Made by a program: the position numbers and the translations under genes. The notes beneath the pieces are model-generated. The model did no database searches and had not been told where the DNA came from. It saw only the letters and a program-made list of their open reading frames with translations. A stretch of DNA of 64,000 nt, taken from the NCBI GenBank assembly GCA_963816145.1, contig CAWFJP010000004.1:288001-352000 (forward strand), written 5' to 3'. This document shows positions 29,035 to 61,776 of this stretch, piece after piece. Each line of letters begins with the position of its first letter. The stretch's first letter is position 1. This DNA is from an uncultured delta proteobacterium. Lineage in GTDB: Bacteria; Desulfobacterota; Binatia; UBA9968.

Positions 29035-29035
29035 C

Positions 29036-41835: not shown

Positions 41836-41860
41836 GGCGCAGTTGCAGGCAAGAACCACA

Positions 41861-44210: not shown

Positions 44211-45119
44211 TCAACTCCGGTCAACCTGCGATTGCCTGCGGTTAGCGTCCAGCATGCCGAGGTAGTGATAGATGCGGCCTTTGCTGCGATAGCGCTTACG
44301 CTCTTTCCCTATCAGAGTGTAAAAAACGTACTCGATGGCGACACGGGTGAGACTAAAGAGCATGGATGCTGTGCTACGTTTTCGAATCAGGAATCGGCTG
44401 CCGCCCTGCTGCCAGTGAATCTGTTTGAAATACTCCTCGGTCAAGCGCCGGCGGTCGACCCCATGGTAAACCATCGCCTGCGGCGCATAGCCGATGGCAA
44501 TGCCCGCGCGAGTCAGGCGGCGCGCGAAGTCGACGTCTTCCGAGGTCCCCGACGCGCCAGGCCCGAGGCGTTCGTCGAAGCCTCCGGCCCGGTCAAACGC
44601 GGTGCGAGAGACGAAGAAGTTGGCGCCGTTCAAGGAATGCACGGACCTTACGTCTCGCGGGTGTTCGAGTCTCGGGATCGTGCGATAGCGTTCAACCAAT
44701 TTGACGAGATCCGGATCGTTCTGGGCCGGTGCTTGCAACCGGATGGCCCCCTGTCCCGCCTCGAAGGTGCCGGTTCGAAAAAAATCATCGACGGCGGTGA
44801 GCCAATTCTTATCAACGACCACATCGTCGTCGAGAAAGGCGAAGACATCGCCGTTCGCCGCCTTGACGGCATCGTTAATCGCCGCGGATTTCCCGGGCCG
44901 TACTACGCCCAAGACTCGAAGCGTTATCGGAAAATCTTTGGCGACGTTGGCGGTGAAATCATCGGTGCCGTCATCCGAACCATTGTTGGCTACGATGACT
45001 TCCGGGCGAATCGCTCCGATATTGTCGGCGCCGCGCAGACTCTCTAAAAGCTCGCCGAGGGTCAGCTCGCGATTTTTCGTGGGGATGATGATGGAAAGAC
45101 TGAAAGATCGTGCATTCAT
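44211..45119 (-). CDS. glycosyltransferase family 2
   Basis: SIIIPTKNR, NNGSDDGT, FLDDD, GANF, GGFDERLG, SEDVDF. Confidence 0.9.
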   Translation of the reverse strand: MNARSFSLSIIIPTKNRELTLGELLESLRGADNIGAIRPEVIVANNGSDDGTDDFTANVAKDFPITLRVLGVVRPGKSAAINDAVKAANGDVFAFLDDDVVVDKNWLTAVDDFFRTGTFEAGQGAIRLQAPAQNDPDLVKLVERYRTIPRLEHPRDVRSVHSLNGANFFVSRTAFDRAGGFDERLGPGASGTSEDVDFARRLTRAGIAIGYAPQAMVYHGVDRRRLTEEYFKQIHWQQGGSRFLIRKRSTASMLFSLTRVAIEYVFYTLIGKERKRYRSKGRIYHYLGMLDANRRQSQVDRS

Positions 45120-45710: not shown

Positions 45711-46478
45711 ATGACATCCCTATATCAGTACCGCGAGCTTATTCGCAATCTCGTTGTGAAGGATCTTAAGCTAAAATATCGGGATTCGACGATCGGTTTT
45801 ATCTGGTCGTTGGTGAATCCGCTGCTATTGATTCTTGTTTATAGCTTCGTTTTTAGCAACATCCTCAAGGGTGGCATACCGAACTTCTCGTATTTCTTAC
45901 TGATCGGTATCTTGCCTTGGAATTTTTTCGCTCAGTCGATCATGATGTCGACCGGTTCAATCCTGGACAATGGCGGACTGATTAGAAAAGTTGCCATGCC
46001 GATGGAGGTTTTTCCGGTCGCCACGGTACTCTTCAACTTGGTTCAACTTGTTCTGGCGTTATTGGTTTTTGCGCCTATGTCTTTCTGGTTCTTTCAAGTG
46101 CCGATGGCCTGGGTTACCCTATGGTTTTTCCCCTTGCTGATCTTGCACATGCTCTTTACCATTGGTCTGAGTTTCTTGATCTCGACAGCGACCATCTTTT
46201 ACCGTGATGTGCGCCATTTTGTCGAGATCGCCTTGACGCTGTTATTCTGGCTTACACCGGTTATTTACGATATTGGCAGCGTTCCGGAATCTTTCCGCTC
46301 GGTCATTTACTGGAATCCGCAGTCCTTCTTTATCCTGAGTTATCAAGACATTCTTTATCGTCAAGCGGCGCCTGAAAATTCTCGAGTCGCGATCTTGATA
46401 TTATTGACGGTGGCGTCACTGACGATCGGCTACCAAGTGCATCGTCATTATAAGGCTCGGTTTGCCGAAGAGGTTTGA
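45711..46478 (+). CDS. wzm: ABC-2 polysaccharide exporter permease (Wzm/RfbA/TagG family)
   Basis: KDLKLKYRDSTIGFIWSLVNPL, YRDVRH, WLTPVIY, WNP; about 6 TM segments. Confidence 0.9.
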   Translation: MTSLYQYRELIRNLVVKDLKLKYRDSTIGFIWSLVNPLLLILVYSFVFSNILKGGIPNFSYFLLIGILPWNFFAQSIMMSTGSILDNGGLIRKVAMPMEVFPVATVLFNLVQLVLALLVFAPMSFWFFQVPMAWVTLWFFPLLILHMLFTIGLSFLISTATIFYRDVRHFVEIALTLLFWLTPVIYDIGSVPESFRSVIYWNPQSFFILSYQDILYRQAAPENSRVAILILLTVASLTIGYQVHRHYKARFAEEV

Positions 46479-46482
46479 GGAG

Positions 46483-47232
46483 ATGGCGGGTCGAATCGAT
46501 ATCGTCAGTGTATCCAAAGCGTTTTCGATTCGCCACAATCGCTCGAATTCGCTCAAATCGTCATTTGTCGGAATCTTTCACCCGCGTTACCAGGAGCGCG
46601 TGGAAGAGTTTTGGGCCCTGCGCGATATCAACTTGGAGATCCAGCCCGGTGAATCTTTCGGCATCATCGGTCGGAATGGCTCCGGCAAGAGCACGCTTTT
46701 GAGAATCATCGCGGGGATTTATTCCCCCTCGTCGGGCGAAATTCGCATGCCGAAAAATATCCGCGTCGGCGCCATGATCGAGCTCGGGGTGGGCTTTCAT
46801 CCGGAGCTAACCGGACGAGAAAATGTCTTTTTGGGTGCTTCGATCCACGGACTCTGTCGTAAGGAAATCGAGGCGCTGTATCCGGCCATCGTCGAGTTCG
46901 CGGAGTTGGAGGAGTTCATGGATACCGCGATGAAAAATTATTCCTCCGGCATGCAGGCGCGCCTCGGCTTCGCGTTGGCGGTTAATCTCAATCCCGATCT
47001 TTTTATCATCGATGAAGTCCTCTCCGTGGGAGACGAAGCCTTTCAGCAGAAATGCGTCAAGCAAATTGAAGCGTTTCAAGCCCTGGGCAAGACTATCATT
47101 TTCGTTTCACATAGCCCGGAGGTCGTCAAAAGCATTTGCAGTCGGGTCTGCGTCTTGGATCACGGCTCATTGGTCTATTTGGGAGAGGCTCAAGAGGCGA
47201 TTGAACATTATCACGCTCGCCTGCCGCATTAG
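46483..47232 (+). CDS. wzt: ABC polysaccharide exporter ATPase (Wzt/RfbB/TagH family), no C-terminal carbohydrate-binding domain
   Basis: FWALRDI, GRNGSGKSTLL, YSSGMQARLGF, DEVLSVGD; 249 aa from ATG 46483. Confidence 0.92.
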   Translation: MAGRIDIVSVSKAFSIRHNRSNSLKSSFVGIFHPRYQERVEEFWALRDINLEIQPGESFGIIGRNGSGKSTLLRIIAGIYSPSSGEIRMPKNIRVGAMIELGVGFHPELTGRENVFLGASIHGLCRKEIEALYPAIVEFAELEEFMDTAMKNYSSGMQARLGFALAVNLNPDLFIIDEVLSVGDEAFQQKCVKQIEAFQALGKTIIFVSHSPEVVKSICSRVCVLDHGSLVYLGEAQEAIEHYHARLPH

Positions 47233-47535
47233 ATATTGACTCGATAGTGTATCAATTCCCGCAATGGTTAGCCGAAAGATTTTCGAATATCACTTTGCGC
47301 TGGTACTCAACAGGCGAGCAACGGACCAAGAAGCAGAATTATAATGGGGGAAGTTCCTGCCATTAATTAAGCTGCCTGTCCGTCTGTCTCTTCCGCCGTT
47401 TTACCGCTACCACAAAACGGCTCTTTGCAGGTTATTTGCTTCGATATTAATCAGCCTCGCAATCCAAGTCGATAGCGTTTGCACCGATTTTGCGGGATCC
47501 CGGGTTACATGGTACTTTCGCCGGAAAGCGATGTC

Positions 47536-48018
47536 ATGAATTATGCCACCGATCCTCAGAGTCGTGCCGTGAGAGGGCAGATCTACTTGCTGCTAGTCGT
47601 GGCATTAGTCGCATACTTGGGAGGTTGTACGATGTCGGACGCTCAACCCACCGAGAAAAAGGCCGGATGGACAACGAAAGTCGCGCCGGAATTAATAAAT
47701 CTGTATGACGAATATTCGCGCTACCTGGCTTCAGGTAAGTCCGGCGAGTTCAAATCGACCCATTCGTTGGTACCGGTCATTGATGATCGTGTGGTGATCG
47801 ACGCGGTGGCGTCTGGTGATGCGACCATTCTCAAAGCGGACCTAGAGTCCCTCGGGATGCAACGCGCGGTTGCCTTCGGTCGCATCGTCTCAGGCCAGCT
47901 GCCAATTTTGGCAATCTCCCGTATGGCGACACTACCTAGCTTGAATTTTGCCAGGGCGGCCTCTGCCGTTTTGCAAGGCGGCGGATCTCCGGTTCGTCCT
48001 GGGCCGCTTCCTCAATAG
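47536..48018 (+). CDS. predicted lipoprotein; stand-alone homologue of the downstream protease propeptide
   Basis: hydrophobic stretch ending in the lipobox LGG-C; 48/93 ungapped identities (hand count) to the protease N-terminal region; start uncertain (47536 or GTG 47569). Confidence 0.8.
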   Translation: MNYATDPQSRAVRGQIYLLLVVALVAYLGGCTMSDAQPTEKKAGWTTKVAPELINLYDEYSRYLASGKSGEFKSTHSLVPVIDDRVVIDAVASGDATILKADLESLGMQRAVAFGRIVSGQLPILAISRMATLPSLNFARAASAVLQGGGSPVRPGPLPQ

Positions 48019-48046
48019 TTGATTGGCAGACAACGAGGGAAATTGC

Positions 48047-50515
48047 ATGAAACGATGGGTTTTGGGTTTGTTTGCCGTCATTCTGCTCCCTTGCCTTGGC
48101 AGCAACATCGCGCAGGCTCAAGCCAATAAGAGTGACCCCATGGCCAAGCTAACGCAAAGCTTGGTAACTCTCCACGATCGCTTTACCACACACTTGGCAC
48201 AACGCAGCGCGGCGTCGTTTAGATCCGCTGATCCTTTAGTCTCGCTGGTGGCCGATCGTGTTGTCGTCGATGCGGTTGCTGCTGGTGATGTTGATTTACT
48301 TAAAGCAGATTTGGTGTCGTTGGGAATGCGCAATGCAGTCTCCTTTGGACGGGTCGTCTCGGGCCAGCTGCCTATCGCCGCGCTTCCCGCCGCCGCGGGA
48401 CTGGCAAACCTGGGGTTCGCACGATCCACCGCTGCCATAACCAGTGCCGGTAGCGTGACGAGCCAGGGCGATCAAGCGATCCGTTCCAATGTGGCGCGGG
48501 CCACTTACGGGGTGGATGGGAGCGGGGTCACAGTGGGAGCCCTGTCAGATAGCTTTAACTGTCTCGGCGGCGCCACGGCAGACATCACTAGCGGGGACCT
48601 ATCGCCAGTAACCGTGGTCCAGGAGATTGGGAGCTGCGGCGCCGGTACCGACGAGGGCCGGGCCATGCTGCAAATCGTCCATGACGTCGCCCCCGGGGCT
48701 AGTTTGGCCTTTGCCACTGCGTTTAATGGCTCGGCTTCTTTTGCGGCGAACATTCAGTCGCTCGCGGCGGCCGGAGCGAAAGTAATCGTCGATGATGTAA
48801 TTTATTTAGCCGAGCCAATGTTTCAGGACGGTATCATCGCCCAGGCGGTCAATAACGTGGTCTCGGGAGGTGCCGCTTATTTCTCGGCGGCCGGCAACCA
48901 AGGTCGCGACGGTTATGAAAGCGCCTTCCGGCCAGGTGATGTCTTCGCGGCCAACGCGTTTCCGGGTGCACCCGCTTTTCTCGGTGGCACAGCCCACAAT
49001 TTCAATGCCAGCGGCGGCAACGATCCTTTCCAAAGCATCACGATCCCGGCAGGTACCACTGTCTCTGTTAGCCTACAATGGGACTCGCCGTTTTTTTCAG
49101 CTTGCCCTCCATCGACAAGCAACTGCCAAAGGACGCAAAACAATCTCGACCTCTATATTTTAGATGCCTCTGCAAGCGTAGTCATAGCCGGAGTTACAAC
49201 CAACAATATCATCAGCGGCGATGCGGTCGAGCTCCTCGGAGTCATGGTCACCGGCTCAACGCCACTTACCGTGAATCTCATGATCGTCAATCGCTCGGGA
49301 CCTAACCCGGGTTTGATTAAGTACGTTTATTTTGTTTCTGGTGCAGCACCGACGATCAACGAGTACGCCACAAACAGCGGCACGCTCTACGGCCATGCCA
49401 ACGCAGTTGGCGCGGAATCGGTGGGTGCGGCTGCCTACTTTAACACTCCAGCATTCGGTGTTTCTCCGCCGGTTTTAAATTCCTATTCTTCATCAGGGTC
49501 GACCCCTATTCTTTTTGACTTGGCAGGTAACCGGCTTACCAATCCCGAACTCCGTGCCAAGCCGGAGATTGTCGCCCCGGATGGCGGCGACACGACATTC
49601 TTTGGCTCCCTATATCCAGATGGAAATGGATTCCCCAACTTCTTTGGCACGTCGGCCTCGGCGCCTCATGCGGCGGGTGTAGCGGCACTAATGTTACAGA
49701 GGAGACCGACGTTAGTGCCGGCCGGATTATACGCAAGTCTGGAAAGCACCGCGATTGATATGGGCGTGCCAGGCTTCGATAGTGACAGCGGATTTGGCCT
49801 TATTCAGGCCGATGCGGCCCTAGTGATAAACGAAGTTTTTGTTCGTCAACAGTATTTGGATTTTTTGGATCGGGAGCCGGATTCTGGGGGCTTTGCGGGC
49901 TGGGTGAATGTATTGGACAACGGCTTACCGAGGGCGAGTTTGATCGAAGCATTCATGGATTCGGGGGAATTTCACTTTAAGGGGGAATTCATCGCCCAGG
50001 TTTATTTGGGGATTTTGACTCGGGATGCTGAATATAGTGGATTTCGGGGTTGGTTAGGGTTATTGCTCGCAGGAGCATCTCCAGAGCAGATTGTACAGGC
50101 GTTTTTAGTCTCGGGTGAATTTCAGTCTAGGTTTGGCAGCAATCTAACCAACGCACAGTTTGTCGAGCGGATGTACAATAATATATTGCTACGGCCGTCA
50201 GATCCTGGGGGATTTAATGGTTGGGTACAGGTATTAAACAGCGGGCAGCTGACTAGGGCACAGGTGGCGTTGAGTTTTTTGGATTCGGGAGAGTTTCAGA
50301 ATCTGGATGTGAGCCAGAATAGGGTGGACCTATCGCTTTTGTATTTCGATATGCTGCGGCGGGATCCTGATGCTGGGAGTTTTTCGGCGTGGGTAGGGGA
50401 TCTCGATGCTGGAGTACCATTCACATCGGTGCTAGAGGGCTTTCTGAACTCTATCGAATATAAAACGCGAATTGCCGCACTGGTGGCATCCTTGCAATTT
50501 TCCTCTAGGCTCTGA
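48047..50515 (+). CDS. secreted subtilase (S8/S53-like) with propeptide and C-terminal DUF4214-like repeats
   Basis: Sec signal MKRWVLGLF...AQA; VGALSDSF, DEGRAM, SAAGN, KPEIVAPDG, FFGTSASAPHAAG; SD GAGGGA. Confidence 0.88.
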   Translation: MKRWVLGLFAVILLPCLGSNIAQAQANKSDPMAKLTQSLVTLHDRFTTHLAQRSAASFRSADPLVSLVADRVVVDAVAAGDVDLLKADLVSLGMRNAVSFGRVVSGQLPIAALPAAAGLANLGFARSTAAITSAGSVTSQGDQAIRSNVARATYGVDGSGVTVGALSDSFNCLGGATADITSGDLSPVTVVQEIGSCGAGTDEGRAMLQIVHDVAPGASLAFATAFNGSASFAANIQSLAAAGAKVIVDDVIYLAEPMFQDGIIAQAVNNVVSGGAAYFSAAGNQGRDGYESAFRPGDVFAANAFPGAPAFLGGTAHNFNASGGNDPFQSITIPAGTTVSVSLQWDSPFFSACPPSTSNCQRTQNNLDLYILDASASVVIAGVTTNNIISGDAVELLGVMVTGSTPLTVNLMIVNRSGPNPGLIKYVYFVSGAAPTINEYATNSGTLYGHANAVGAESVGAAAYFNTPAFGVSPPVLNSYSSSGSTPILFDLAGNRLTNPELRAKPEIVAPDGGDTTFFGSLYPDGNGFPNFFGTSASAPHAAGVAALMLQRRPTLVPAGLYASLESTAIDMGVPGFDSDSGFGLIQADAALVINEVFVRQQYLDFLDREPDSGGFAGWVNVLDNGLPRASLIEAFMDSGEFHFKGEFIAQVYLGILTRDAEYSGFRGWLGLLLAGASPEQIVQAFLVSGEFQSRFGSNLTNAQFVERMYNNILLRPSDPGGFNGWVQVLNSGQLTRAQVALSFLDSGEFQNLDVSQNRVDLSLLYFDMLRRDPDAGSFSAWVGDLDAGVPFTSVLEGFLNSIEYKTRIAALVASLQFSSRL
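49835..50463 (+). repeat. DUF4214-like four-repeat C-terminal module, copy 1
   Basis: 4 x Y-x3-L-x-R-x-(P)D-x2-G-x3-W...F-x2-S-x-E[FY]; core 49941-50418 matches 54799-55276 with 8 mismatches. Confidence 0.9.
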
Positions 50516-51506
50516 AAAGGTTTGGGAAATCGCATAGAGTGAAGTGATAAATTTGTTCAGTCGAGCTAGAAGTGTCCGGCAGGTTTCACAATAAAATCGG
50601 TTGGTTAGTGTTGTCGCACAACAGTTCGTTGGTTGACGCGTAGGTAAGGCGCTGGAACAAAGAATTATTCTCCAACGGTGCAATGCTCAGAATCTGTAAC
50701 TTTTCGTGCAAGGACAAATCTCAATTGAGACGCTAACGAACGCTGGCGACTAATTTGGGAATCTCTGAACAAGTCTTCTGTAAAGTCGTCTAAAATCCAA
50801 AACCGGTAAGAATGTCCAGTTTTTCAATGGGACAAAATCGCGGGAACAAGTGAATCGTTGTTGGTTGAGGTTCGACGGTCGCCAACATGCCGAGCGCAAT
50901 TTTTGCACCCTCCCAGAGAGGCCCTGGACTATCAAACCGGGTATTTTTTGTTACAACAGAAAAACTACACATCGGGTCCGAGACGGATTGCGTAAAAGCG
51001 GTGCGGCTCGCGAGCGTCGCCATTAGGTCAAGACTTGCCGCGATTCGTTCCAATCCACCTTACCCGGACCAAGATCATAACGGGCACCGATAAGCATTCT
51101 CGGCTGAATGGTTCCTCATGCAGCAGGTCAGCGCCCCCAATAGTAACTAAACAAGGCCGAAACAGCTTTGCTACAGTAGCGCGTTAGTGAATCGTTGTTA
51201 GGCACCGGATGAATATAGCTGTTATTACCAAATAGCTTCTATTAATTACAGCAATTACACAATAGTTACTAGGCCTTCATAAGCATAGCTCGGGAAAAAA
51301 TTTTGTCGATGACTCTTACTTCATCGGTGGCGAGGATCGTAGTTGTAGCTAAACGCCTACGCATCACCTGTCTGATTTTCGAGTCACCAACTGACAAAAC
51401 TGTTCCTTCTTCACCATTCGATGGTCAGAACTGAACAAAAAAATATAACCGGTTTCCCCCAGGGAACAGCGGAGCGTCACAGACGGCAAGGGTGTGCGTT
51501 TAGAGT

Positions 51507-51520
51507 TGACACAAGTGTCA
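51507..51520. promoter_or_regulatory. palindromic operator candidate
   Basis: TGACAC-AA-GTGTCA, 13 nt upstream of the sigma-54 -24 element. Confidence 0.4.
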
Positions 51521-51533
51521 TGTCCGAAGGCTG

Positions 51534-51549
51534 TGGCATCAACCCTGCT
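51534..51549 (+). promoter_or_regulatory. putative sigma-54 (-24/-12) promoter
   Basis: TGGCAT-CAACC-CTGCT, exact GG-N10-GC spacing, about 110 nt upstream of the riboswitch. Confidence 0.6.
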
Positions 51550-51658
51550 TAAGACGATCCAAGAAATTTTTAAAATTGTTGCACGGGTTTAATAGAAAAT
51601 GCGGGTTGGTTGCATAAGTGCTCGAAAACTTTCAACCAAAGCACTCGATAAGACTAAC

Positions 51659-51754
51659 GGTCGAAAAAGGCAATCCATCCGCAAGGGTAGGACGCGAAGT
51701 CACTGACCTGAGTTCCCCTACGCCGGAATACGGTAGCGGGGTTGCCATGCGACC
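51659..51754 (+). ncRNA. cyclic di-GMP-I (GEMM-I) riboswitch aptamer
   Basis: P1 GGTCG/CGACC; AAAGGCAATCCATCC-GCAA-GGGTAGGACGCGAAG...ACCTGAG...TACGGTAGCGGGGTTGCC fits the GEMM-I consensus; in the 5' leader of the CDS at 51809. Confidence 0.85.
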
Positions 51755-51808
51755 CCAGTTGACCTTTTCAACGACTGCGGGTCATGCACGCGAAGGAGGT
51801 TCTCTGGG

Positions 51809-52906
51809 ATGAGCCGTCTGTATTTTCTATGTCGAACAATAATTGTCATCGCAACTGTGTTGGCCGCGGGTGTGGCACTAGCAGATCGGGTCGAAGCAGC
51901 GAGCCTTCGTCTTGGCTGGAGCGACAACTCTAGCAACGAAAGTGGATTCAAAATTGAACGTCGCGCAGCCGGTGGAAGTTATGCTCAGCTTACGACTGTC
52001 GGCGCAAATGTTACGTCATACACTGACTCCGGCCTGACCTCTGGCCGGACATATTGCTATATTGTTCGCGCCTTCAATTCCGCCGGCACCTCGGTCCCAA
52101 CCAAGGAAGCTTGCGCGACAACTGCGTCAACATCCACGAGTAGCAGCACATCGTCAAGCACCACCACGACAACCTCGACCGGGACGACGGGTTCTACGTC
52201 AACTTCCGGCGGCAGCTCGGCGCTAACACTATTCTCTGATAATCGTGTGTTCGTCTCTCAGCAGTATTTAGACTTTCTGGATCGAGCGCCGGACTCTGTA
52301 GGATTTGCTGCATGGGTCAATGCACTGAACAGCGGGTTTCCGAAGGCGGGCCTAATCGAGAGCTTCATGGATTCTGGAGAATCCCGCATTAAGGGGAAAT
52401 TCATTGCTCAAACTTACCTGGGGATTTTTAGTCGGGATGCCGGGCATAACGAGTTTCGTGATTGGTTGGGAGCGTTGCTGCAGGGGATGTCACGGGAACA
52501 GATCGTGCAGTTTTTTTTGAACTCCGATGAGTTTAAGTCTCGGTTTGGCAGTGGTCTGACGAACAGACAGTTTGTGGAGAGGATGTACAATAACATACTG
52601 CTGCGTTCGTCTGATTATGCGGGATTAAATGGTTGGGTGTGGGCACTAAACAACGGGCAGGTGACCAGGGCGCAGGTGGCGCTGAGTTTTTTGGATTCGG
52701 ATGAATTTCAGAATCTTAGTGCCAGTCAGAACCGGGTGGACATAGCGCTTTTGTATTTCGACATGTTGCGGCGGGATCCTGATGCTGGGGGTTTTTCGGG
52801 GTGGGTCGAAGCTCTCAATTCGGGCGTACCGCTTACATCGGCAATCGATGCTTTCCTAATGTCCCGTGAATATCAAGCTCAATTCTGTAATTGCGTTCTA
52901 CAATAG
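51809..52906 (+). CDS. secreted FN3-domain protein with Ser/Thr linker and C-terminal DUF4214-like repeats
   Basis: signal peptide; LGWSDNSSNESGFKIER...YTDSGL...YCYIVRAFNSAG FN3 signature; S/T-rich linker; SD AAGGAGG. Confidence 0.88.
   Translation: MSRLYFLCRTIIVIATVLAAGVALADRVEAASLRLGWSDNSSNESGFKIERRAAGGSYAQLTTVGANVTSYTDSGLTSGRTYCYIVRAFNSAGTSVPTKEACATTASTSTSSSTSSSTTTTTSTGTTGSTSTSGGSSALTLFSDNRVFVSQQYLDFLDRAPDSVGFAAWVNALNSGFPKAGLIESFMDSGESRIKGKFIAQTYLGIFSRDAGHNEFRDWLGALLQGMSREQIVQFFLNSDEFKSRFGSGLTNRQFVERMYNNILLRSSDYAGLNGWVWALNNGQVTRAQVALSFLDSDEFQNLSASQNRVDIALLYFDMLRRDPDAGGFSGWVEALNSGVPLTSAIDAFLMSREYQAQFCNCVLQ
52247..52873 (+). repeat. DUF4214-like four-repeat C-terminal module, copy 2 (more diverged)
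   Basis: VFVSQQYLDFLDRAPD...FVERMYNNILLR...LYFDMLRRDPDAGG...FLMSREY, collinear with copies 1 and 3. Confidence 0.88.
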
Positions 52907-53432
52907 ACGTTTAATGCCAGGCCGACTTAGTGCCGTAAACGATCCTATCAAAGTCGTTGGTTATACGACTACATGGAACGAGATTTCGAAGACGCCTCTG
53001 CCCGTTGTGAATGCTTGCCAGCGCCTGGGCTTTGCGATTGCAGGCAGCAAGCTCAACCAATGGCACTTTGACCGCGTACCCGCTCTTCCATTCCCGACAG
53101 ATCGATAAGCCCTCAGCGAAAAACGACCGACCATACGGAATTCTTCCGGCGGAATTTTTCCCAGCCGTGTTCTTCCGTCGGCAATCCGCTCACGCCGCAA
53201 GGCTAGAGCAGCTCGTTTTATGAACATTGCCGGGCTGAGTCTTGACCCTCAAGACCTCCGATCTGAACCAGACGGGTAAGGAACGGATCGTAGGAAGGAT
53301 TTTCCGATGGTGCAGTAAAATCCGAAACGCCCACCAATTGCCGGCCCCAGTACTCACCAGGTTGCTGTCGACCTCGAATGCTTCCGAGTTGACTTGATTG
53401 TTGCGAATAAGGCGTTCTATAAATTTCCATTC

Positions 53433-55334
53433 ATGGTATCTGGATCGTTTAACTTAAGGGGGCGGGGCAAGCTCAGATTATGCGAGATCGCAATTCTCTG
53501 GATCATTAATTTTGTTCTTTTACCCTTCTCAAATGCACAAACGCTAACCGACCCATCGTTGCGAGTGAGCGAGATTGTCGCTGGGTTGAGCCAGCCCACC
53601 GCGATGGCGTTTATCGGACCGGGCGACATTCTTGTGCTGCAAAAGGGAGATGGACAGGTTAAACGGGTCGTTGACGGGGTGCTGCAAGCGGCCCCGGTCC
53701 TAGATGTAACAGTCGACAATCAATCTGAACGTGGACTTTTGGGGATCGCCGTTCATCCGAACTTTCCAGCGACACCGTTTGTTTATCTTTACTACACACA
53801 AAGCAGCACCTCGACGGATACATCCGGAAACCCGTCGTCGCTCGGCAATCGCGTCTATCGTTACGCCTGGACTGGTAACGCTCTGGTCAGTCCCACTTTG
53901 ATATTGGATTTGCCGGTTACACCAGGACCGAATCATAACGGGGGCACTATGACTTTCGGTCCGGACGGCAAGCTCTATGTGGTCATCGGAGACCTGAACC
54001 GTGATGGACAACTGCAGAATTTCTCCAATGGTCCCGGCCCAGACGATACGGGGGTGATCTTCCGCATCAATGATGATGGTCGCGTTCCGATTGATAATCC
54101 ATTCTTTTCTCAAGGGGGCAATTTAGCAAAGTACTATGCGTACGGGATTCGCAACAGCTTCGGCCTGGCCGTCGATCCACTTACCGGCGAACTTTGGGAT
54201 ACCGAGAACGGACCGAACAACTTCGATGAGATTAATCTGGTGCAGCCGGGCTTCAACAGCGGCTGGAAGCGGATCATGGGTCCGGTGAGTCGTGATGCGG
54301 AAGGAACAAGTGATTTGGTTCAGTTTCCCGGCTCGCATTACGCTGACCCGAAGTTTTCCTGGCTAAATACTGTGGGACCAACTGCTATCGCTTTCATGAA
54401 ATCCCCTCTCCTGGGTGCCAAATACCAGAACGATATTTTTGTTGGAGATATCAATAACGGGAACCTCTACCATTTCGGAGTTAGCGCGACCCGAGATGGG
54501 TTTGACTTTACGAGTCTGGGACTCGCGGATCTGGTAGCGGACAGCAGTGCAGAACTCGAAGAAATTATTTTGGGAACAGGGTTCGGCGGAATCACGGATC
54601 TCAAAGTTGGACCAGACGGCTTGTTGTATGTCCTCTCATTCGGGGTGGGTAAGATATTCGTTTTATCCAGCGACTCCACGACCGAAAACGCGATCTTTGT
54701 TCGTCGGCAATATTTGGATTTTTTAGATCGGGAGCCTGGTCCGGGAGAGTTTACTGCTTGGCTAAACGCGTTGGATAGTGGGTTGGCGAGATCTAGTATG
54801 ATCGAAGCATTCATGGATTCGGGGGAATTTGACTTTAAGGGGGAATTCATCGCCCAGGTTTATTTGGGGATTTTGACTCGGGATGCTGACTATGGTGGAT
54901 TTCGGGGTTGGTTAGGGTTATTGCTCGCAGGAGCATCTGCAGAGCAGATTGTGCAGGCGTTTTTAGTCTCGGGTGAATTTCAGTCTAGGTTTGGCAGCAA
55001 TCTAACCAACGCACAGTTTGTCGAGCGGATGTACAATAATATATTGCTACGGCCGTCTGATCCTGGGGGATTTAATGGTTGGGTACAGGTATTAAACGGC
55101 GGGCAGCTGACTAGGGCACAGGTGGCGTTGAGTTTTTTGGATTCGGGAGAGTTTCAGAATCTGGATGTGAGCCAGAATAGGGTGGACCTATCGCTTTTGT
55201 ATTTCGATATGCTGCGGCGGGATCCTGATGCTGGGAGTTTTTCGGCGTGGGTAGGGGAGCTCGATGCTGGAGTACCTCTCACATCGATAATCGATGCATT
55301 TCTAAATTCCGCTGAATATAAGGCCCGGTTATAG
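53433..55334 (+). CDS. secreted PQQ-dependent sugar dehydrogenase (GSDH/YliI-like) with C-terminal DUF4214-like repeats
   Basis: ERGLLGIAVHPNF, HNGG...FGPDGKLY, YGIRNSFG, ENGP...DEIN, GPDGLLY; signal peptide ending SNA; start uncertain. Confidence 0.85.
   Translation: MVSGSFNLRGRGKLRLCEIAILWIINFVLLPFSNAQTLTDPSLRVSEIVAGLSQPTAMAFIGPGDILVLQKGDGQVKRVVDGVLQAAPVLDVTVDNQSERGLLGIAVHPNFPATPFVYLYYTQSSTSTDTSGNPSSLGNRVYRYAWTGNALVSPTLILDLPVTPGPNHNGGTMTFGPDGKLYVVIGDLNRDGQLQNFSNGPGPDDTGVIFRINDDGRVPIDNPFFSQGGNLAKYYAYGIRNSFGLAVDPLTGELWDTENGPNNFDEINLVQPGFNSGWKRIMGPVSRDAEGTSDLVQFPGSHYADPKFSWLNTVGPTAIAFMKSPLLGAKYQNDIFVGDINNGNLYHFGVSATRDGFDFTSLGLADLVADSSAELEEIILGTGFGGITDLKVGPDGLLYVLSFGVGKIFVLSSDSTTENAIFVRRQYLDFLDREPGPGEFTAWLNALDSGLARSSMIEAFMDSGEFDFKGEFIAQVYLGILTRDADYGGFRGWLGLLLAGASAEQIVQAFLVSGEFQSRFGSNLTNAQFVERMYNNILLRPSDPGGFNGWVQVLNGGQLTRAQVALSFLDSGEFQNLDVSQNRVDLSLLYFDMLRRDPDAGSFSAWVGELDAGVPLTSIIDAFLNSAEYKARL
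54693..55320 (+). repeat. DUF4214-like four-repeat C-terminal module, copy 3
   Basis: 478-bp core about 98% identical to copy 1. Confidence 0.9.
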
Positions 55335-55472
55335 CGAACGAGGCTTCTTATTTGTGTTGGTCCTAGAATCTCTTGGGGGACGGGGGAGACAGTCCCGCAA
55401 CTAGACCCTCTATTCAGTTATCTTCCGGTGTCCTATACGTGCTTTCTGGATTGGACCCGGCAGACGTGAAGA

Positions 55473-57536
55473 GTGCGGAGCTTACATACGGTGATGGGAG
55501 AGAGCGAAAAATCTAAATTAAGACGAGACACGGTTGGCTATAGCCTTTTCCCGCACGGGACTAGGCGTGGCGAAGCTCTCGGCTTCATCAGAAACGCGAT
55601 TTACTTTCTTTTTCGTGGTCCTTCGGCAATTATTTACCAACCGCGGCGAATCGTGCGGACGATTCGCTCTGCGTTGTTTGTCCTGCGCAGAGGCGGGCTC
55701 AAGGCTTTGAGGCTTCGCCTTATGTACAGAGTCAGCGGCCAATTGGACTACGATTCTTGGATCAAAATCCACGATACCTTGACCGCTGCCGATCGCTGTG
55801 CGATCCGCCAGCATATCGAGCGGCTCGATTACAAACCTGTCATTTCGGTGATCATGCCCGTCTACAACACCGATCGGAGGTGGTTGCGAGCGGCCATAGA
55901 TTCCGTTGTTGAGCAACTTTACGACAAATGGGAGCTTTGTATCGCAGACGATGCGTCGACCGAATTTCACGTTAAGAGAATCCTCGAGGAATACCGGACT
56001 AAGGACCGGCGGATAAAGGTCATCTTCCGCGAAAAAAACGGTCATATCTCGGTTGCTTCTAACAGCGCGCTTGAACTTGCGACGGGGAAATTCGTGGCGC
56101 TACTTGACCACGATGATGTGCTGCCTGAGCATGCCTTATATACGATAGCGGTCGAGATGAACGACCATCGGGACGCAGATCTAATCTATAGTGATGAGGA
56201 CAAGATTAACGATGAAGGCCGCCGCTACGACCCCTATTTCAAACCAGACTGGAACCCAGATCTTTTTTTGTCTCAGAACTTGGTCAGCCATCTGGGAGTT
56301 TACCGCACCTCTATTATTAGACAGATCGGCGGGTTCAGGCCCGGTTACGAGGGCAGCCAGGATTGGGATCTTGCAATGCGGGTAGTCGAGAGTATCCCAC
56401 TTGTCCATATACGACATGTTCCTCACATCCTATATCACTGGCGCGCAATACGAGGATCGGCTGCTCTTACGGAGGATCAGAAGAACTACGTCCACGCAGC
56501 GCAGTTCAAGACGCTTCAATCTAACTTTGATCGTAGTGGCGACGATGTGGCAATTCTCCCGGCGGTGGGCGGGTACTGGCGCATCCGATATCCCCTGCCA
56601 CAGTCAGCGCCTCATGTCACGTTGCTTATTCCCACTCGAAATGGCCTCAGCCTTTTGCAACGATGCTTGGGCAGTCTTTTTGACAAAACAACTTATCCCA
56701 ACTTTGACGTAATCATACTTGACAATCAGTCGGATGATCCGGATATGTTGGTTTACCTCAGTGAGTTGGAGAGAACGAAGGCCGTCCAAATACTCCGCTA
56801 TGACGCACCGTTCAATTACGCCGCGATCAACAATTACGGGGTTCGACATGCGCGTGGAGAGATCATCGGTCTGCTCAACAATGATGTTGAGGTGATCTCA
56901 CCTGATTGGCTGGAAGAAATGGTAACGCATGCTCTCCGACCCGATATCGGCGCGGTAGGGGCGATGTTGTATTTTCCTGATGACACCATTCAGCATGCTG
57001 GTGTCATCCTTGGCCTCGGTGTGTATGGGGTGGCGGCCCATCCATATCAGCGTAGGCCACGAGGCTTGCAGGGCCAGATGGGGCGTGCGCTACTTGTGCA
57101 AAATCTTACTGCTGTTACTGCTGCCTGTTTAGTTTTGCGACGAGCCGTTTTCGAGGAGGTGGCAGGGATGGATGAACTCAACTTACCGGTAGCATTCAAC
57201 GACGTAGATTTATGTCTGCGCATTCGAGAAGCCGGATATAGGAATCTGTGGACTCCTTACGCGGAACTTTATCATCGCGAGTCGGCTAGTCGTGGATTTG
57301 ACGACATTCCGAATAAAAAAGTCCGTTTTCAAAAGGAGAGGGATTACATGATAAGCCGCTGGGGGGAAGTTTTGGTGAGCGATCCCGCTTATAACCCCAA
57401 TTTGGCACTGGACCAGGACGGCTTTATGCTTGCCTATCCTCCACGAGTTGCAAAACCCTGGCTTGCGGAGGAAGTTCGGCCGGGAGTAAAGGCGACGACC
57501 CAAAGTGCCGCCGCCTTTGAACGAGACTTCTCATAA
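55473..57536 (+). CDS. tandem GT2-GT2 glycosyltransferase (O-antigen/surface-glycan synthesis)
   Basis: SVIMPVYN...ADDAS...LDHDD...YSDEDK...SQDWDL; second domain LIPTRN...LLNNDVE...AVTAAC...FNDVDLC. Confidence 0.9.
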   Translation: MRSLHTVMGESEKSKLRRDTVGYSLFPHGTRRGEALGFIRNAIYFLFRGPSAIIYQPRRIVRTIRSALFVLRRGGLKALRLRLMYRVSGQLDYDSWIKIHDTLTAADRCAIRQHIERLDYKPVISVIMPVYNTDRRWLRAAIDSVVEQLYDKWELCIADDASTEFHVKRILEEYRTKDRRIKVIFREKNGHISVASNSALELATGKFVALLDHDDVLPEHALYTIAVEMNDHRDADLIYSDEDKINDEGRRYDPYFKPDWNPDLFLSQNLVSHLGVYRTSIIRQIGGFRPGYEGSQDWDLAMRVVESIPLVHIRHVPHILYHWRAIRGSAALTEDQKNYVHAAQFKTLQSNFDRSGDDVAILPAVGGYWRIRYPLPQSAPHVTLLIPTRNGLSLLQRCLGSLFDKTTYPNFDVIILDNQSDDPDMLVYLSELERTKAVQILRYDAPFNYAAINNYGVRHARGEIIGLLNNDVEVISPDWLEEMVTHALRPDIGAVGAMLYFPDDTIQHAGVILGLGVYGVAAHPYQRRPRGLQGQMGRALLVQNLTAVTAACLVLRRAVFEEVAGMDELNLPVAFNDVDLCLRIREAGYRNLWTPYAELYHRESASRGFDDIPNKKVRFQKERDYMISRWGEVLVSDPAYNPNLALDQDGFMLAYPPRVAKPWLAEEVRPGVKATTQSAAAFERDFS

Positions 57537-57548
57537 AGTGCCGGTGAC

Positions 57549-59498
57549 ATGAAAGATGTAACGCCCCAGGTTAGTGAACCTGAGAAAAAAGTGAGCGAGT
57601 TGAAAGATAAAGTTGATCTACTGGAACGTTCGCTGCAACAAGCGCTTTACGAAAGGGATGTTTTAGAGTTTGAACTCCAGAAAATCAATAACAGTCTCTC
57701 TTGGCTGACAATAATAAAATATCGAGAATTACGTGACTGGTGTCTTCCGATCGGGACGAGACGTCGCCACGCTTACGACTCTGTACGAGGTAATCTTAGA
57801 GCGCTGATTTTACATACGGGTCCAAGCTCTGACCTTACTCGTCGGCACATTCCGGAGCAGATGGTGAGCACTCCCGAAGTTGGCTCCATCGAGCAGCCCT
57901 TGGCGAATGAGACGGTGCGACGCATGCCCATAGGGGTGTGGGGCTGGGCGGTTCTCGCTGGGCCCCTCGCGCGGGTTGACATCACAGTGGATGGGGAGGT
58001 TCAGGGGGCTGCCCGTCTCGGTGTTTACCGGCCCGAACTAGCAGTGTTGTTTCCAGGTCGACCCGATGCCATCGTTAGCGGGTTCGAGTATCTCCTTGAC
58101 TTGACGGGCCTGCCGGGAGAACGCAGCACTGTTACCTTGGGCGCGGACGCCCGCGGCCTCGACGGTTCATGTTATAAACTCTCCGAGGTCACAATCGGGA
58201 TCGGCCCTCGAGAGACCCCATACGAGGATTTCAACGGACGAACGGCCCGGCTTCGCGCAGAGCCCAGGCGCCAGGTCTCGCGAGAATCCGGGACCGGCGA
58301 GGAATCGATTCGACTACTTGCCTTCACCCATCACCTGGGATACGGAGGCGGGCAGCTGTACCTCTACGAGCTTCTGCGGCAACTCCGTCGCCAGGACGAC
58401 TTTACCAGTACGGTAGTAGCACCTGAAGACGGGCCACTACGCTCTGCAATCGAGGATTTGGGTATCCCTGTTCATGTCACTCATGGGTACCCTTACCAGA
58501 ACCTCGAGATGTTCGAGCGGCAGATCCATGAGCTTATGGCTTGGGCTCGTCCCCAGGGATTCAACGCGGCACTAGTGAACACGGTGGGTACTCTACCTGG
58601 GCCCGAGGTAGCCATTGGCCTGGACATTCCCTTCGTCTGGGCCATTCACGAGAGCTGGACGCCCCGCGTGATCTGGTCCGTGATTCATCCACCTCCCGGC
58701 GCACATCCTCAAGTCCGGCGAAGGGTCATTGATGCGCTAGGCAAAGCCGCGGCGGTCGTATTTGAAGCCGATGCCACTCGGCTCCAGTACCAGCCTTACG
58801 GTGATCCTGAGCGGTTCATCCTTGTGCCCTACGGCATCGATGTGGGTTCAGTTGATCGCTATCGGGCCTCGTTCGACCGCGTCTCGGCCCGTCGGCGCCT
58901 CGGAATTCCCAACACCGCGACCGCCATCCTCTGCATGAGCACCATTGAACCGCGCAAAGCACAAGTGCTCCTGGTCCAAGCGTTCCGGCAGGTGGCGGAG
59001 GCCCATGCCGACGCCTTCCTCATCCTGGTCGGCGATACAGGTTCCCCGTATGGCGAGGCCGTCCGGTCCTTGGTAGCTGCAGCCGGACTGCGGAAGCGTG
59101 TCATAATCTCCCGGGTGGTTCCAGAACCCTATGAGTGGTACGCAGCGGCCGACCTCTTAGTCTGCCCGTCGGATGTGGAATCGCTGCCTAGATGCGTCCT
59201 CGAAGCGATGGCATTTGAGCTCCCGGTGCTTGCGACGGAAGTGTTTGGGCTTCCGGAACTGATCAAGGATGGGGAGAACGGTTATCTCTGTCGGCCATGC
59301 GATCTCGGTGCGCTCGCCACTGCTCTGGATCGTGTGTTAAGCGAAGACAAGGAAAAGCGCCGACAGGTAGCAAGGAACGGCGCCAATTTGGTTCGCACGC
59401 GCCACGATTCGCGTGGATATGCGGACGCGTATCTGCGTCTGATGCGAGGGCTAATCCAGAACCCCGAGGCCAAACCTCGTGACCTTTTGGCCGGGTAG
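57549..59498 (+). CDS. multidomain glycosyltransferase: N-terminal coiled coil, Ig-like segment, GT4 domain
   Basis: heptad-like N-terminus; GWAV...VDG...RPEL...SGFE; HHLGYGGG; ESLPRCVLEAMA (EX7E). Confidence 0.82.
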   Translation: MKDVTPQVSEPEKKVSELKDKVDLLERSLQQALYERDVLEFELQKINNSLSWLTIIKYRELRDWCLPIGTRRRHAYDSVRGNLRALILHTGPSSDLTRRHIPEQMVSTPEVGSIEQPLANETVRRMPIGVWGWAVLAGPLARVDITVDGEVQGAARLGVYRPELAVLFPGRPDAIVSGFEYLLDLTGLPGERSTVTLGADARGLDGSCYKLSEVTIGIGPRETPYEDFNGRTARLRAEPRRQVSRESGTGEESIRLLAFTHHLGYGGGQLYLYELLRQLRRQDDFTSTVVAPEDGPLRSAIEDLGIPVHVTHGYPYQNLEMFERQIHELMAWARPQGFNAALVNTVGTLPGPEVAIGLDIPFVWAIHESWTPRVIWSVIHPPPGAHPQVRRRVIDALGKAAAVVFEADATRLQYQPYGDPERFILVPYGIDVGSVDRYRASFDRVSARRRLGIPNTATAILCMSTIEPRKAQVLLVQAFRQVAEAHADAFLILVGDTGSPYGEAVRSLVAAAGLRKRVIISRVVPEPYEWYAAADLLVCPSDVESLPRCVLEAMAFELPVLATEVFGLPELIKDGENGYLCRPCDLGALATALDRVLSEDKEKRRQVARNGANLVRTRHDSRGYADAYLRLMRGLIQNPEAKPRDLLAG

Positions 59499-59635
59499 TC
59501 GTTGTCGTCGGTTCAAGGCCGTGTTGCGGCTCTGGACGAATTCGCCGCGGGTACTGTAAGGTGTTCAATTCCAGTTGACGGGTTATTATCACACGTGGTC
59601 CTGATTCTGTCACGAAGCCGGAAGGATTGGTAAAC

Positions 59636-60580
59636 ATGGCTATCAGCGGTCAAGAACGTTGGGACAAAGCATTCAGCAGTGATCACGCAAAGCCTGAGCA
59701 AATCCGCGCCATCTACACATTGGCGTCTGAACTATACTGGCATCTTTATGGCAACCGCTGCTTTGGCAATACCGGCAGTGAATACGGGTGGCTCTCGTGG
59801 CTTTATCGGGTGTACGGGCATCCACGGCCGCGCCGTGTACTCGAGCTCGGCAGCGGAAACGGTGATTTGCTGTTGGACCTGCAACGCATGAATTTTGCCG
59901 ACCAATACGTAGGTATTGATGTCTCCGCCGTTGGTGTAGAGGTCTCTCAACAAAAGGCGACCGAGGCGGGCATCTCGAACGTTCGATTTGAGGTGGGCGA
60001 TTTGAATCAGCTCCAATTAGCTCCGCTGTGCTACGATATGATTCTGGCGCAGATGTGCATCCACCACATCGAGAATCTCGAACACCTTTTTGCACAGGTA
60101 GCGCGTGCGCTTACACCCGATGGCCTATTCGCCATCTGTGACTTTGTAGGTCCCAGCCGATGGCAATTTACCCGGATGCAAATTCTGCTCGCAAATGCTC
60201 TGCTTTACTGCGTACCAGATCGATTGAAGGTAAGTCACCCTGAGGGGAACATTAAAGGTCGACTTAAGCGACCTACTATCGGTGAGATGCTGGCGATGGA
60301 TGCGTCCGAGGCGGTTCGTTCCGAGGAGATTTTACAGGTGTTCAAGCAATACTTTCGCGTCGAGTCTGTGATCGACTTCGGTGGCAGCGTTTCGATCCCC
60401 GTTTTAGATAGGATTATTAGCAACTTTCATGCAGGGGACCTAACCAGTGTTAGATGGCTTAAGTTTGTACTTTGGACAGATCATTGGGCGCGCCGTCTAC
60501 GTCTGGTTCCGCGGGTTAATCTGGTACTCGCAGGGCGCCCACGCAATGATGTGCGTAACACGTCTTTATCTACGGGATAG
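59636..60580 (+). CDS. class I SAM-dependent methyltransferase
   Basis: VLELGSGNG, GIDVS, IHHIENL, DFVGPSRWQ, SEAVRS. Confidence 0.85.
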   Translation: MAISGQERWDKAFSSDHAKPEQIRAIYTLASELYWHLYGNRCFGNTGSEYGWLSWLYRVYGHPRPRRVLELGSGNGDLLLDLQRMNFADQYVGIDVSAVGVEVSQQKATEAGISNVRFEVGDLNQLQLAPLCYDMILAQMCIHHIENLEHLFAQVARALTPDGLFAICDFVGPSRWQFTRMQILLANALLYCVPDRLKVSHPEGNIKGRLKRPTIGEMLAMDASEAVRSEEILQVFKQYFRVESVIDFGGSVSIPVLDRIISNFHAGDLTSVRWLKFVLWTDHWARRLRLVPRVNLVLAGRPRNDVRNTSLSTG

Positions 60581-60948: not shown

Positions 60949-61776
60949 TTGGAATTAAGAAACCTCAAATCACTGGTCACGAATATTCGATTGAAAGTCC
61001 GTTCTGGCGCGGAAAGGCATTACTGCCCTTTATGTAATCAACAGGTTAAAAACTATCTACCATTGCCTGACTTCTATTTAGATAATCTCCGAAAGTATGG
61101 CTGGAAATATAGTTTTGAAGACTCTGAATTCTGCAACGTAAAAAATTATTTATGTCCTTCTTGCGGTGCCAGTGATCGTGACAGATTGTACGCCTTGTAT
61201 CTAAAGCGATATTTCGCCAAAACTCGACGTGAAAATGCCATCAGGATCGTTGATTTTGCGCCCTCACCGCAGTTAACGGCTTTTATCAAGAATTTGGCGA
61301 CCGCATTAAATCAAAACATCACCTATCGGAGTGCCGATTTGTTCATGCAGGAGGCGGATGACAGGGTTGATATAATGGATATGACAATCTACCCGGACAA
61401 GCACTTTGATTTTTTTGTCTGTTCGCACATGCTTGAGCACGTCGTCGATGATCGGAAGGCGCTACGAGAATTATACAGAATCTTAAAGTGGGGCGGACAG
61501 GGCATCTTAGTTGTACCGATTGTGCTGAGCATTGATGAAATTGATGAAGACCCTTCAGTGACCGACGTCGCCGAGCGGTGGCGGCGGTTCGGGCAAGATG
61601 ACCACGTGCGGTTGTATTCCAAGCAAGGGTTCTTAAGAAGAATAGAGGAAGCAGGATTTGTCGTTCATCAGCTTGGTCAGAAATTCTTTGGCAAAAAAGT
61701 GTTCACGCAGAACGGCATTACGCCGCAGAGTGTCTTATACATAGTAGAGAAAACGGAGCACTGCGAACTCCCGTGA
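60949..61776 (+). CDS. SAM-dependent methyltransferase-like protein with N-terminal CxxC/CxxC
   Basis: CPLC, CPSCGASDRDR, DFAP, CSHMLEHVVDD, FGQDDHVR. Confidence 0.78.
   Translation: MELRNLKSLVTNIRLKVRSGAERHYCPLCNQQVKNYLPLPDFYLDNLRKYGWKYSFEDSEFCNVKNYLCPSCGASDRDRLYALYLKRYFAKTRRENAIRIVDFAPSPQLTAFIKNLATALNQNITYRSADLFMQEADDRVDIMDMTIYPDKHFDFFVCSHMLEHVVDDRKALRELYRILKWGGQGILVVPIVLSIDEIDEDPSVTDVAERWRRFGQDDHVRLYSKQGFLRRIEEAGFVVHQLGQKFFGKKVFTQNGITPQSVLYIVEKTEHCELP

Follow-up and report, generated by a model that had tools for sequence, protein, structure and literature searches.

Some bacteria hold unrelated proteins at their surface by means of a portable, non-covalent anchor. One example is SLH, whose tandem short helical repeats bind a pyruvylated secondary cell-wall polymer (SCWP) made by genes in the same genome. 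SLH is found mainly in monoderms. This work concerns a stretch of 64 kb (the window, positions 288,001 to 352,000 of contig CAWFJP010000004.1) from an uncultured delta proteobacterium, in which three secreted proteins with unrelated cargo domains end in the same module of four DUF4214 repeats. The genes encoding the three lie between those of a Wzm/Wzt glycan exporter and those of glycosyltransferases. The module belongs to a different family from SLH, it gives no Pfam match to SLH, and the likeness between the two is functional only.

An established case of attachment to a surface glycan is that of Caulobacter, where the N-terminal domain of RsaA anchors the surface layer (S-layer) to the O-antigen of lipopolysaccharide (LPS) (von Kügelgen et al. 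2020, PMC6978808). As described there, the RsaA domain resembles what is proposed here in that it is alpha-helical and keeps a non-covalent hold on LPS O-antigen. However, it stands at the N-terminus, depends on calcium, and is exported by a type I secretion system (T1SS), whereas the window module stands at the C-terminus of proteins that begin with a Sec signal. Homology of the module with the RsaA domain is not established.

Two parts of the proposal are already in print. The shared C-terminal tag was described for segmented filamentous bacteria (SFB) by Pamp et al. (2012, PMC3371716), who reported 19 predicted secreted Cluster.1 proteins with dissimilar N-termini and four conserved C-terminal regions matching PF13946, the Pfam family DUF4214. 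The fold of these regions was likened to the one seen in phycobilisome linker 2KY4, and one of the proteins carries an FN3 domain. The SFB proteins of Cluster.1 and Cluster.3 display the same pattern of one tail and many cargos as the window proteins, but their host is a monoderm relative of Clostridia, and the passage that describes them reports no link to a Wzm/Wzt glycan locus. A more recent SFB paper (2025, PMC12780176) speaks of DUF4214 as a likely surface-anchoring domain.

The connection to O-antigen was proposed for Psh (PP_1794), an RTX-DUF4214 protein of Pseudomonas putida KT2440 that is secreted by a T1SS and whose gene lies inside an O-antigen operon for pseudaminic-acid capping (10.64898/2026.09.02.748959). 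The 2026 preprint suggests that Psh binds the cell's own O-antigen and in this way masks phage receptors, gives the fraction of homologues that adjoin O-antigen or T1SS genes as more than 80%, and names peptidase, peroxidase, and Ig-like cargo for DUF4214 homologues. From this account, Psh is like the window proteins in having a helical DUF4214 domain and a gene within an O-antigen-type locus. It differs in its RTX repeats and adjacent T1SS, since Pfam finds neither a HemolysinCabind (RTX) match nor a T1SS gene in the window locus, where the N-termini appear by eye to be of the Sec type. Also, Psh is a single shield protein, while in the window the cargo enzymes or adhesins are three. The novelty of the present case lies in a Sec-dependent version with multiple cargos, encoded between wzt and glycosyltransferase genes in a Binatia-like lineage, together with the homogenization of modules within a locus and a probable riboswitch.

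The model considered here is that Wzm/Wzt exports a surface polysaccharide built by the neighboring glycosyltransferases and that the intervening cassette (a subtilase with a lipoprotein-like paralogue, an FN3 protein behind a riboswitch, and a pyrroloquinoline quinone (PQQ) sugar dehydrogenase) is exported by Sec. The four-repeat DUF4214 module would then be a shared domain for non-covalent retention in the cell envelope, attaching to a surface glycan, of which the likeliest is the polysaccharide that the neighboring Wzm/Wzt exports, and the enzymes and the adhesin-like protein would thereby be kept on or near the cell. A probability of roughly 0.45 may be given to this reading, in which an LPS-type polysaccharide is the product of the cluster and the DUF4214-tailed proteins are retained in this way. 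Domain architecture, gene order, portability of the module, recurrence of the arrangement in relatives, and homogenization within loci are observed; a glycan as ligand, its being the product of this locus, and arrival of the proteins at the cell surface are inferred.

The locus and its shared module

From wzm through the sugar-modifying genes, all genes of the cluster lie on one strand, in the order given by the initial annotation, which had been made from the DNA sequence alone and which the listing of open reading frames (ORFs) and Pfam matches bear out. Coordinates are positions in the window, and gene calls combine the ORF listing with Pfam. Sec signals and a lipobox were judged by eye from N-terminal sequences. 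The central part of the locus, with lengths in amino acids (aa), is as follows:

45711..46478, + strand: Wzm, ABC-2 type glycan-export permease (Pfam ABC2_membrane, E 1.5e-19)
46462..47232, + strand: Wzt ATPase (Pfam ABC_tran, E 1.4e-22)
47479..48018, + strand: small lipoprotein-like ORF, 179 aa, paralogue of the S8 N-terminal region
48023..50515, + strand: secreted S8 subtilase, 830 aa, with C-terminal 4xDUF4214 (Pfam Peptidase_S8, E 6.3e-13)
49838-50512, + strand: DUF4214 module of the S8 protein (E 1.6e-44, 4 stretches)
51809..52906, + strand: secreted FN3 protein, 365 aa, with C-terminal 4xDUF4214 (Pfam fn3, E 6.9e-07)
52250-52903, + strand: DUF4214 module of the FN3 protein (E 2.3e-47, 4 stretches)
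53394..55334, + strand: secreted PQQ-type glucose/sorbosone dehydrogenase (GSDH, PF07995), 646 aa (Pfam GSDH, E 1.7e-56)
54696-55331, + strand: DUF4214 module of the GSDH protein (E 6.2e-44, 4 stretches)
55473..57536, + strand: glycosyltransferase with two GT2 domains (Pfam Glycos_transf_2, E 3.6e-46, 2 stretches)
57549..59498, + strand: GT4 glycosyltransferase (Pfam Glycos_transf_1, E 6.5e-34, plus Glyco_transf_4)

All three modules exceed the PF13946 gathering score of 23.2 bits, with scores of 150.2 (S8), 159.3 (FN3), and 148.4 bits (GSDH). It had been claimed that three unrelated cargoes share one four-repeat C-terminus of about 205 aa. The cargoes and the shared tail are as claimed; the modules are slightly longer, at 225 (S8), 218 (FN3), and 212 aa (GSDH). 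Those of S8 and GSDH are 88% identical in amino acids and 91% in nucleotides (nt), and the FN3 module is about 70% (aa) and 72% (nt) identical to either one. Taken as sequences, the three are similar far beyond chance. A six-frame scan with a hidden Markov model (HMM) finds exactly three copies of the module in the window. The module of the FN3 protein, modeled by AlphaFold2 (AF2) from a 38-sequence alignment, is predicted with high confidence (pLDDT 96.6, pTM 0.90) to be all-helical, with 16 helices.

DUF4214 is one of the larger uncharacterized extracellular domains, and at E<=1e-3 a profile of the three modules matches 31,474 cluster representatives; at the stricter E<=1e-30 it matches 1,171. 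In 119 of the best 150, the DUF4214 region stops no more than 20 aa short of the C-terminus. A near-complete module of four repeats occurs in 61 of these 150 representatives, and in 47 of those 61 it lies at the C-terminus. Cargo was surveyed in 44 proteins, picked where one stretch spanned most of the module profile. It includes S8, GSDH, GH71/99, phosphoesterase, multicopper oxidase, reprolysin, trypsin, fn3, InlB B-repeat, PKD, Calx-beta, FG-GAP, BNR, and Phi_1. Given cargo that is so diverse and extracellular, and a position that is mostly C-terminal, the module is a portable unit on extracellular proteins, as had been proposed, and such a spread of cargo is, at the level of sequence, what one would expect if the domain served for targeting or anchoring.

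The core of a Wzm/Wzt pathway is present: an adjacent ABC-2 permease and ABC ATPase, with glycosyltransferases on the same strand. The reading frames of wzm and wzt overlap by 17 nt. In NCBIfam, Wzm is most similar to Wzm/RfbD and KpsM and Wzt to TagH and Wzt/RfbE, in each case under the curated cut-offs, and Pfam finds no carbohydrate-binding Wzt_C domain in the window Wzt. The cluster is flanked upstream by a gene for LPS assembly and one for a divergent glycosyltransferase and continues downstream with genes for modification of sugars:

41843..44182, + strand: LptD, LPS outer-membrane insertion protein (Pfam LptD, LptD_2, LptD_N)
44211..45119, - strand: GT2 glycosyltransferase, divergent from the cluster (Pfam Glycos_transf_2, E 6.9e-23)
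59627-60580, 60949-61776, and 62678-63313, + strand: three methyltransferases (Pfam)
61773-62681, + strand: Acetyltransf_6 protein (Pfam)
63326-63988, + strand: NeuD/PglB/VioB-like sugar N-acetyltransferase (Pfam; NCBIfam TIGR03570, 150.6 bits against a cut-off of 160.8)

The presence of LptD identifies a diderm that has LPS, and because the first 27 kb of the window comprise rpoBC and a ribosomal-protein region, the window is chromosomal DNA of such an organism. Since lptD adjoins the cluster, the polysaccharide made by the cluster is most likely an LPS O-antigen. Neither an initiating polyprenyl-phosphate transferase nor WaaL, the ligase that joins the glycan to lipid A-core, was seen between 44 and 64 kb or in the syntenic loci described below; the window ends at 64000, where the cluster is incomplete and extends past the end.

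Related loci, plasmids, and module homogenization

A profile search of genome contigs, using a narrower alignment of the module and annotation by phmmer and Pfam, gave nine loci in six metagenome-assembled genomes (MAGs) of one lineage. Four of the MAGs are labeled "uncultured delta proteobacterium", one Spirochaetota, and one Candidatus Binatia. The arrangement in the window recurs in these relatives: module genes directly adjoin genes for ABC2_membrane, ABC_tran, and glycosyltransferases in four of the nine loci (L001, L003, L004, and L009), and LptD and the divergent GT2 are found also in L001, L002, and L004. L002 is syntenic with the window, with LptD, GT2, and three module genes followed by glycosyltransferases, DegT, and a PglD-like gene. 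Orthologues of the module-bearing GSDH occur in L001, L002, and L003; this gene occupies the same place in four genomes. The GT4 gene has an orthologue in L001 (E 3e-295), where the cluster runs on with a DegT aminotransferase and more glycosyltransferases.

Both cargo and glycosyltransferases vary across the syntenic loci. Besides the GSDH common to the four genomes, the cargo consists of InlB-repeat, FG-GAP, S8, and unknown proteins. The glycosyltransferases include a 1353-aa WbsX-GT4-GT2 protein in L003 and a double GT4 in L004. Wzt_C is present on the Wzt of L004 (7338-8588) and absent from that of the window, L001, L003, and L009. Three of the module genes are each split into two ORFs (L003, 10825-11466 / 11474-12718; L002, 6921-7583 / 7622-8143; L006, 13176-14723 / 14683-15252). 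These encode a GSDH, an InlB-repeat protein, and a beta-helix protein and are either pseudogenes or the result of assembly errors.

In L005 through L008, the module genes sit among two-component systems, pyridoxal-phosphate (PLP) enzymes, transposases, and the like. The upstream regions of L005 and L006 (1-7200), which belong to two MAGs, have in common a PALP enzyme, a Cys/Met PLP enzyme, a sigma-54 response regulator, and a histidine kinase, and this neighborhood is a second conserved home for module proteins, one without glycan genes.

Outside of this lineage, a tblastn search of plasmids with the module matched 32 records from 13 genera, and the first-listed record of each genus was examined (13 of 32). 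Annotated glycosyltransferases lie within 10 kb of the match in nine of the 13. None was found within that distance in Skermanella, Roseomonas, or Antarctobacter, and Jannaschia has sugar-nucleotide genes only. On several of the plasmids there are three or four DUF4214 genes, and between them stand genes for gmd, rfb, methyltransferases, large glycosyltransferases, and a T1SS. ABC-2 permeases, verified by Pfam, lie within 10 kb in four of the 13 match windows (H5, H11, H15, and H29, the Wzt of H29 carrying Wzt_C), while ABC genes in H2 and H14 are cut and unverified. Antipodal 20-kb windows from the same plasmids served as controls (n=12, one 32-kb record being too small and one window, in a linear record, having been shifted). 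An ABC-2 permease was shown in none of the 12: two ABC genes that were tested proved to be ABC_membrane exporters, and an iron-uptake set and a cut permease were untested. Binatia-like MAGs, Rhodobacterales, Rhizobiaceae, and Pseudomonas all have DUF4214 genes set within ABC-2 glycan clusters. Control windows H12c and H14c themselves hold further DUF4214 genes, because small Roseobacter plasmids consist almost wholly of glycan, T1SS, and DUF4214 islands.

Two small Roseobacter-group plasmids of 57-60 kb, Roseovarius pTHAF27_b (L011, L024) and a plasmid of Sulfitobacter S190 (L017, L029), are devoted almost entirely to DUF4214, gmd/rfb/manC, large glycosyltransferase, methyltransferase, ABC, and T1SS genes. 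On a Pseudorhizobium plasmid, Wzt_C is found on the Wzt encoded beside the DUF4214 gene (L022, 17470-18723).

Within the MAG lineage, the modules have evidently been homogenized within their loci. In a tree of 17 modules (a truncated L009 module and a 35-aa L006 fragment were left out), modules cluster by locus and not by cargo, a sign of gene conversion, with support of 100/99 for the S8 and GSDH modules of the window. Identity of modules within a locus reaches 88% for that pair, 95% for the pair in L001, 82-90% for the three in L002, and 83-87% for the three in L003. Between genomes, the cargo halves of the GSDH proteins are 75-91% identical, but their modules only 67-78%. The nucleotide sequences of the window pair identify a tract of exchange:

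49958..50377, + strand, shared with 54816-55235: gene-conversion tract of 420 nt, 97-100% identical in nucleotides (60-nt windows)

In the 120 nt preceding the tract, identity is 72-78%. This is a recent gene conversion between the S8 and GSDH modules. Repeats of this kind could also cause mis-joins during assembly of a metagenome.

What the module may bind

A number of results weigh against binding of a surface glycan, and particularly of the cluster's own product. Consider the fold. A lack of structural likeness to glycan-binding or S-layer anchors had been named in advance as a ground for refutation, and the search of the Protein Data Bank (PDB) with Foldseek returned only phycobilisome-linker domains (PF00427) among the best 48 of 335 matches, with no RsaA, SLH, or carbohydrate-binding fold in those 48. 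Linker domains, the only solved fold found to resemble the module, bind protein. The alignments cover about 110 residues, two DUF4214 repeats to each linker domain, with TM of 0.45-0.49 on the target. The lowest E reached is 8.9e-3, and no match passes E<=1e-3. Searches of PDB sequences (with the module profile, the 38-sequence profile, and the relative P0035) likewise found weak matches to linkers and no RsaA or other anchor, and the window modules cross-match the PF00427 HMM weakly, under the Pfam cut-off. The HMM search for RsaA_NTD (PF19198) that had been suggested as a check gave no match to the three window modules even at E<=10. Linkers bind phycobiliprotein rings inside cyanobacterial cells, while the window proteins carry export signals and occur in a non-phototroph context. 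As to RsaA, there are weak hints from sequence of a link between DUF4214 and its O-antigen-binding N-terminal domain: PF19198 cross-matches 4 of 70 relatives at E<=0.01 (the best, 4.8e-7, inside the DUF4214 region of P0035), and in a language-model search with PF13946 clusters excluded, which serves as a lead only, an RsaA_NTD cluster ranks 11 (score 0.84), compared with 0.77 for the PBS-linker cluster.

Gene neighborhoods provide further points against. Four of the nine related loci, L005 through L008, have no Wzm/Wzt or glycosyltransferase in the DNA examined (L005 and L007 are cut on one side), and in L002 no wzm/wzt was seen within 10 kb. On plasmids, glycosyltransferases are found near the match in 8 of 12 records, and the controls from the same records contain them in 7 of 12. 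This is no enrichment, and the presence of glycosyltransferases near plasmid DUF4214 genes was rejected as evidence. The comparison of ABC-2 permeases, which separates matches from controls better, was chosen after the data had been seen. The association of module genes with glycan loci that had been predicted is upheld in part, by the four loci beside wzm/wzt and by the ABC-2 genes near plasmid matches, and fails for the four distant loci and for plasmid glycosyltransferases.

Nor does homogenization speak clearly for a ligand made by the locus. The FN3 module lies between the other two yet is the divergent one, and the modules of L005-L008 group with orthologues across genomes rather than with the other modules of their own genomes. 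Taken with the clustering by locus, this exception of the dispersed modules indicates that homogenization tracks adjacency. Homogenization of adjacent repeats can be neutral gene conversion, and what is seen, in five loci of one lineage, fits neutral conversion and a shared locus-specific ligand equally. Moreover, the identity of 67-78% between modules of loci with differing sets of glycosyltransferases is no less in keeping with a conserved ligand than with one specific to the locus. Finally, Sec reaches only the periplasm, and no route of export through the outer membrane is visible in the window; the literature on DUF4214, to the extent consulted, contains no biochemical demonstration of glycan binding by the domain; and the case for binding by Psh, as the preprint presents it, consists of docking and gene neighborhood only (10.64898/2026.09.02.748959).

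Perhaps, then, the module serves to dock one protein to another or to self-assemble, so that the cargo proteins are bound to one another, to a lattice resembling an S-layer, or to some protein of the outer membrane, and the locus is no more than an island of envelope genes. This is rather unlikely but a real contender. The position of the linkers, the module's structural neighbors, inside phycobiliprotein rings would fit it, as would matches to PF00427 at E<=0.01 in 42 of 70 relatives, the loci without nearby glycan genes, and the conservation of the module where glycosyltransferases differ. So would the observation reported for Psh of a large protein aggregate and an unchanged LPS pattern (10.64898/2026.09.02.748959). 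On the other hand, no conserved gene for a partner protein stands next to the module genes in the nine loci, and adjacency to an ABC-2 exporter recurs in distant lineages. That recurrence also counts against the supposition that there is no functional link at all, i.e., that variable O-antigen regions gather genes for surface proteins and that the tails are alike through duplication and neutral conversion. The near-identical tract of 420 nt, the differing cargo sets of syntenic loci, the split or frameshifted module genes in L002, L003, and L006, and the plasmid controls are all as one would expect if this were so. However, the GSDH-module gene has been kept in one place in four genomes, and the preprint's count of neighborhoods goes the same way (10.64898/2026.09.02.748959). 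An absence of any functional link is improbable.

Binding might also be the wrong relationship between module and glycan. The S-layer glycan (slg) clusters of Gram-positive bacteria are Wzm/Wzt-dependent, and by analogy with them the cluster could be one for protein glycosylation, with the module proteins as acceptors of the glycan rather than its binders. The location of module genes between exporter and glycosyltransferases would suit such a cluster, as would a PMT_2 (GT-C) gene upstream in L009 and a linker of about 35 aa, rich in Ser and Thr, in the FN3 protein. But just one of the three proteins has such a linker, no oligosaccharyltransferase of the Wzy_C/O-antigen-ligase type was found in L001-L004, L009, or the window from 44 to 64 kb (where the cluster is incomplete), and the adjacency of lptD points to LPS. 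We regard this possibility as highly improbable.

Retention by a surface glycan can be extended to a broader claim, that the four-repeat module is a widespread, glycan-specific, non-covalent surface anchor, remotely related to the N-terminal domain of RsaA, matched through gene conversion within the locus to the O-polysaccharide made there, with at least one displayed protein gated by a cyclic-dinucleotide riboswitch. As a whole, this is doubtful. If it were true, there would be a diderm counterpart to SLH/SCWP anchoring, more than 30,000 protein clusters would have a domain whose function is settled, and for each such protein the glycan ligand would be predictable from the gene neighborhood. 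Short of that, if the module is a glycan anchor, it would provide diderms with a modular surface display comparable to SLH and a handle by which to place enzymes on LPS. If it is not, its repeated co-location with ABC-2 exporters still calls for explanation. In either event, the locus, its relatives, and the plasmid loci offer a compact arrangement that can be tested, composed of an exporter, glycosyltransferases, and several tagged proteins.

A probable riboswitch, the small ORF, and sulfate genes

The cassette of module genes is interrupted on either side of the FN3 gene by non-coding DNA, 1.3 kb before it (50516-51808) and 0.5 kb after it (52907-53393), and with a gap on both sides this gene looks like a separately controlled insert between two converted genes. 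Within the larger gap is a candidate for the means of control:

51660..51750, + strand: probable GEMM-I type cyclic-dinucleotide riboswitch aptamer (Rfam RF03167, best model c-di-GMP-I-GGC)

The match is full-length (model positions 1-80; Rfam clan CL00126) and scores 56.2 bits, E 7.1e-12, slightly below the gathering score of 59. The aptamer ends 58 nt upstream of the FN3 gene, with a GAAGGAGG ribosome-binding site between it and the ATG, a placement that suggests control by a second messenger of the FN3 surface protein alone within the cassette. Rfam finds no riboswitch in the nine related loci, so module genes do not share such control as a conserved trait. The rest of the gap, an AT-richer spacer of 1.15 kb (50516-51659), has no ORF as long as 100 aa, no Rfam match, and no remnant of a module detectable by HMM scan. 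Within the FN3 protein, the Ser/Thr-rich linker is of low complexity and connects the fn3 domain to the module (52110-52250, about residues 103-140). By its composition it is a possible site of O-glycosylation.

The initial annotation took the small ORF ahead of the subtilase gene to encode a lipoprotein. A lipobox-like LGGC motif can indeed be seen by eye, but the protein is actually a stand-alone paralogue of the N-terminal ~140 aa of the subtilase, with 41% identity over 144 aa to S8 residues 3-143 (E 4e-16). It has no match in Pfam or NCBIfam, and its true start is probably downstream of 47479. The AF2 model, from an alignment of four sequences, is unusable (pLDDT 41.8). L009 keeps the same pair, a small ORF (7771-8196) with an S8-type partner. 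By these sequence relationships the small ORF goes with the protease rather than with the glycan, and its product may act, while tethered, as a chaperone or inhibitor in the manner of a pro-domain.

Genes connected with sulfate occur in the neighborhood of some DUF4214 genes. On plasmids of Thioclava and Alloyangia, cysDN lies within 10 kb (L014, 3025-5913; L028, 5946-8817), and a sulfotransferase gene adjoins the DUF4214 gene of Thioclava; these neighbors may hint at sulfated glycans. In the window, sulfate-activation genes (cysD and a cysN/APS-kinase fusion) are found at 28120-30862, 15 kb upstream of the cluster.

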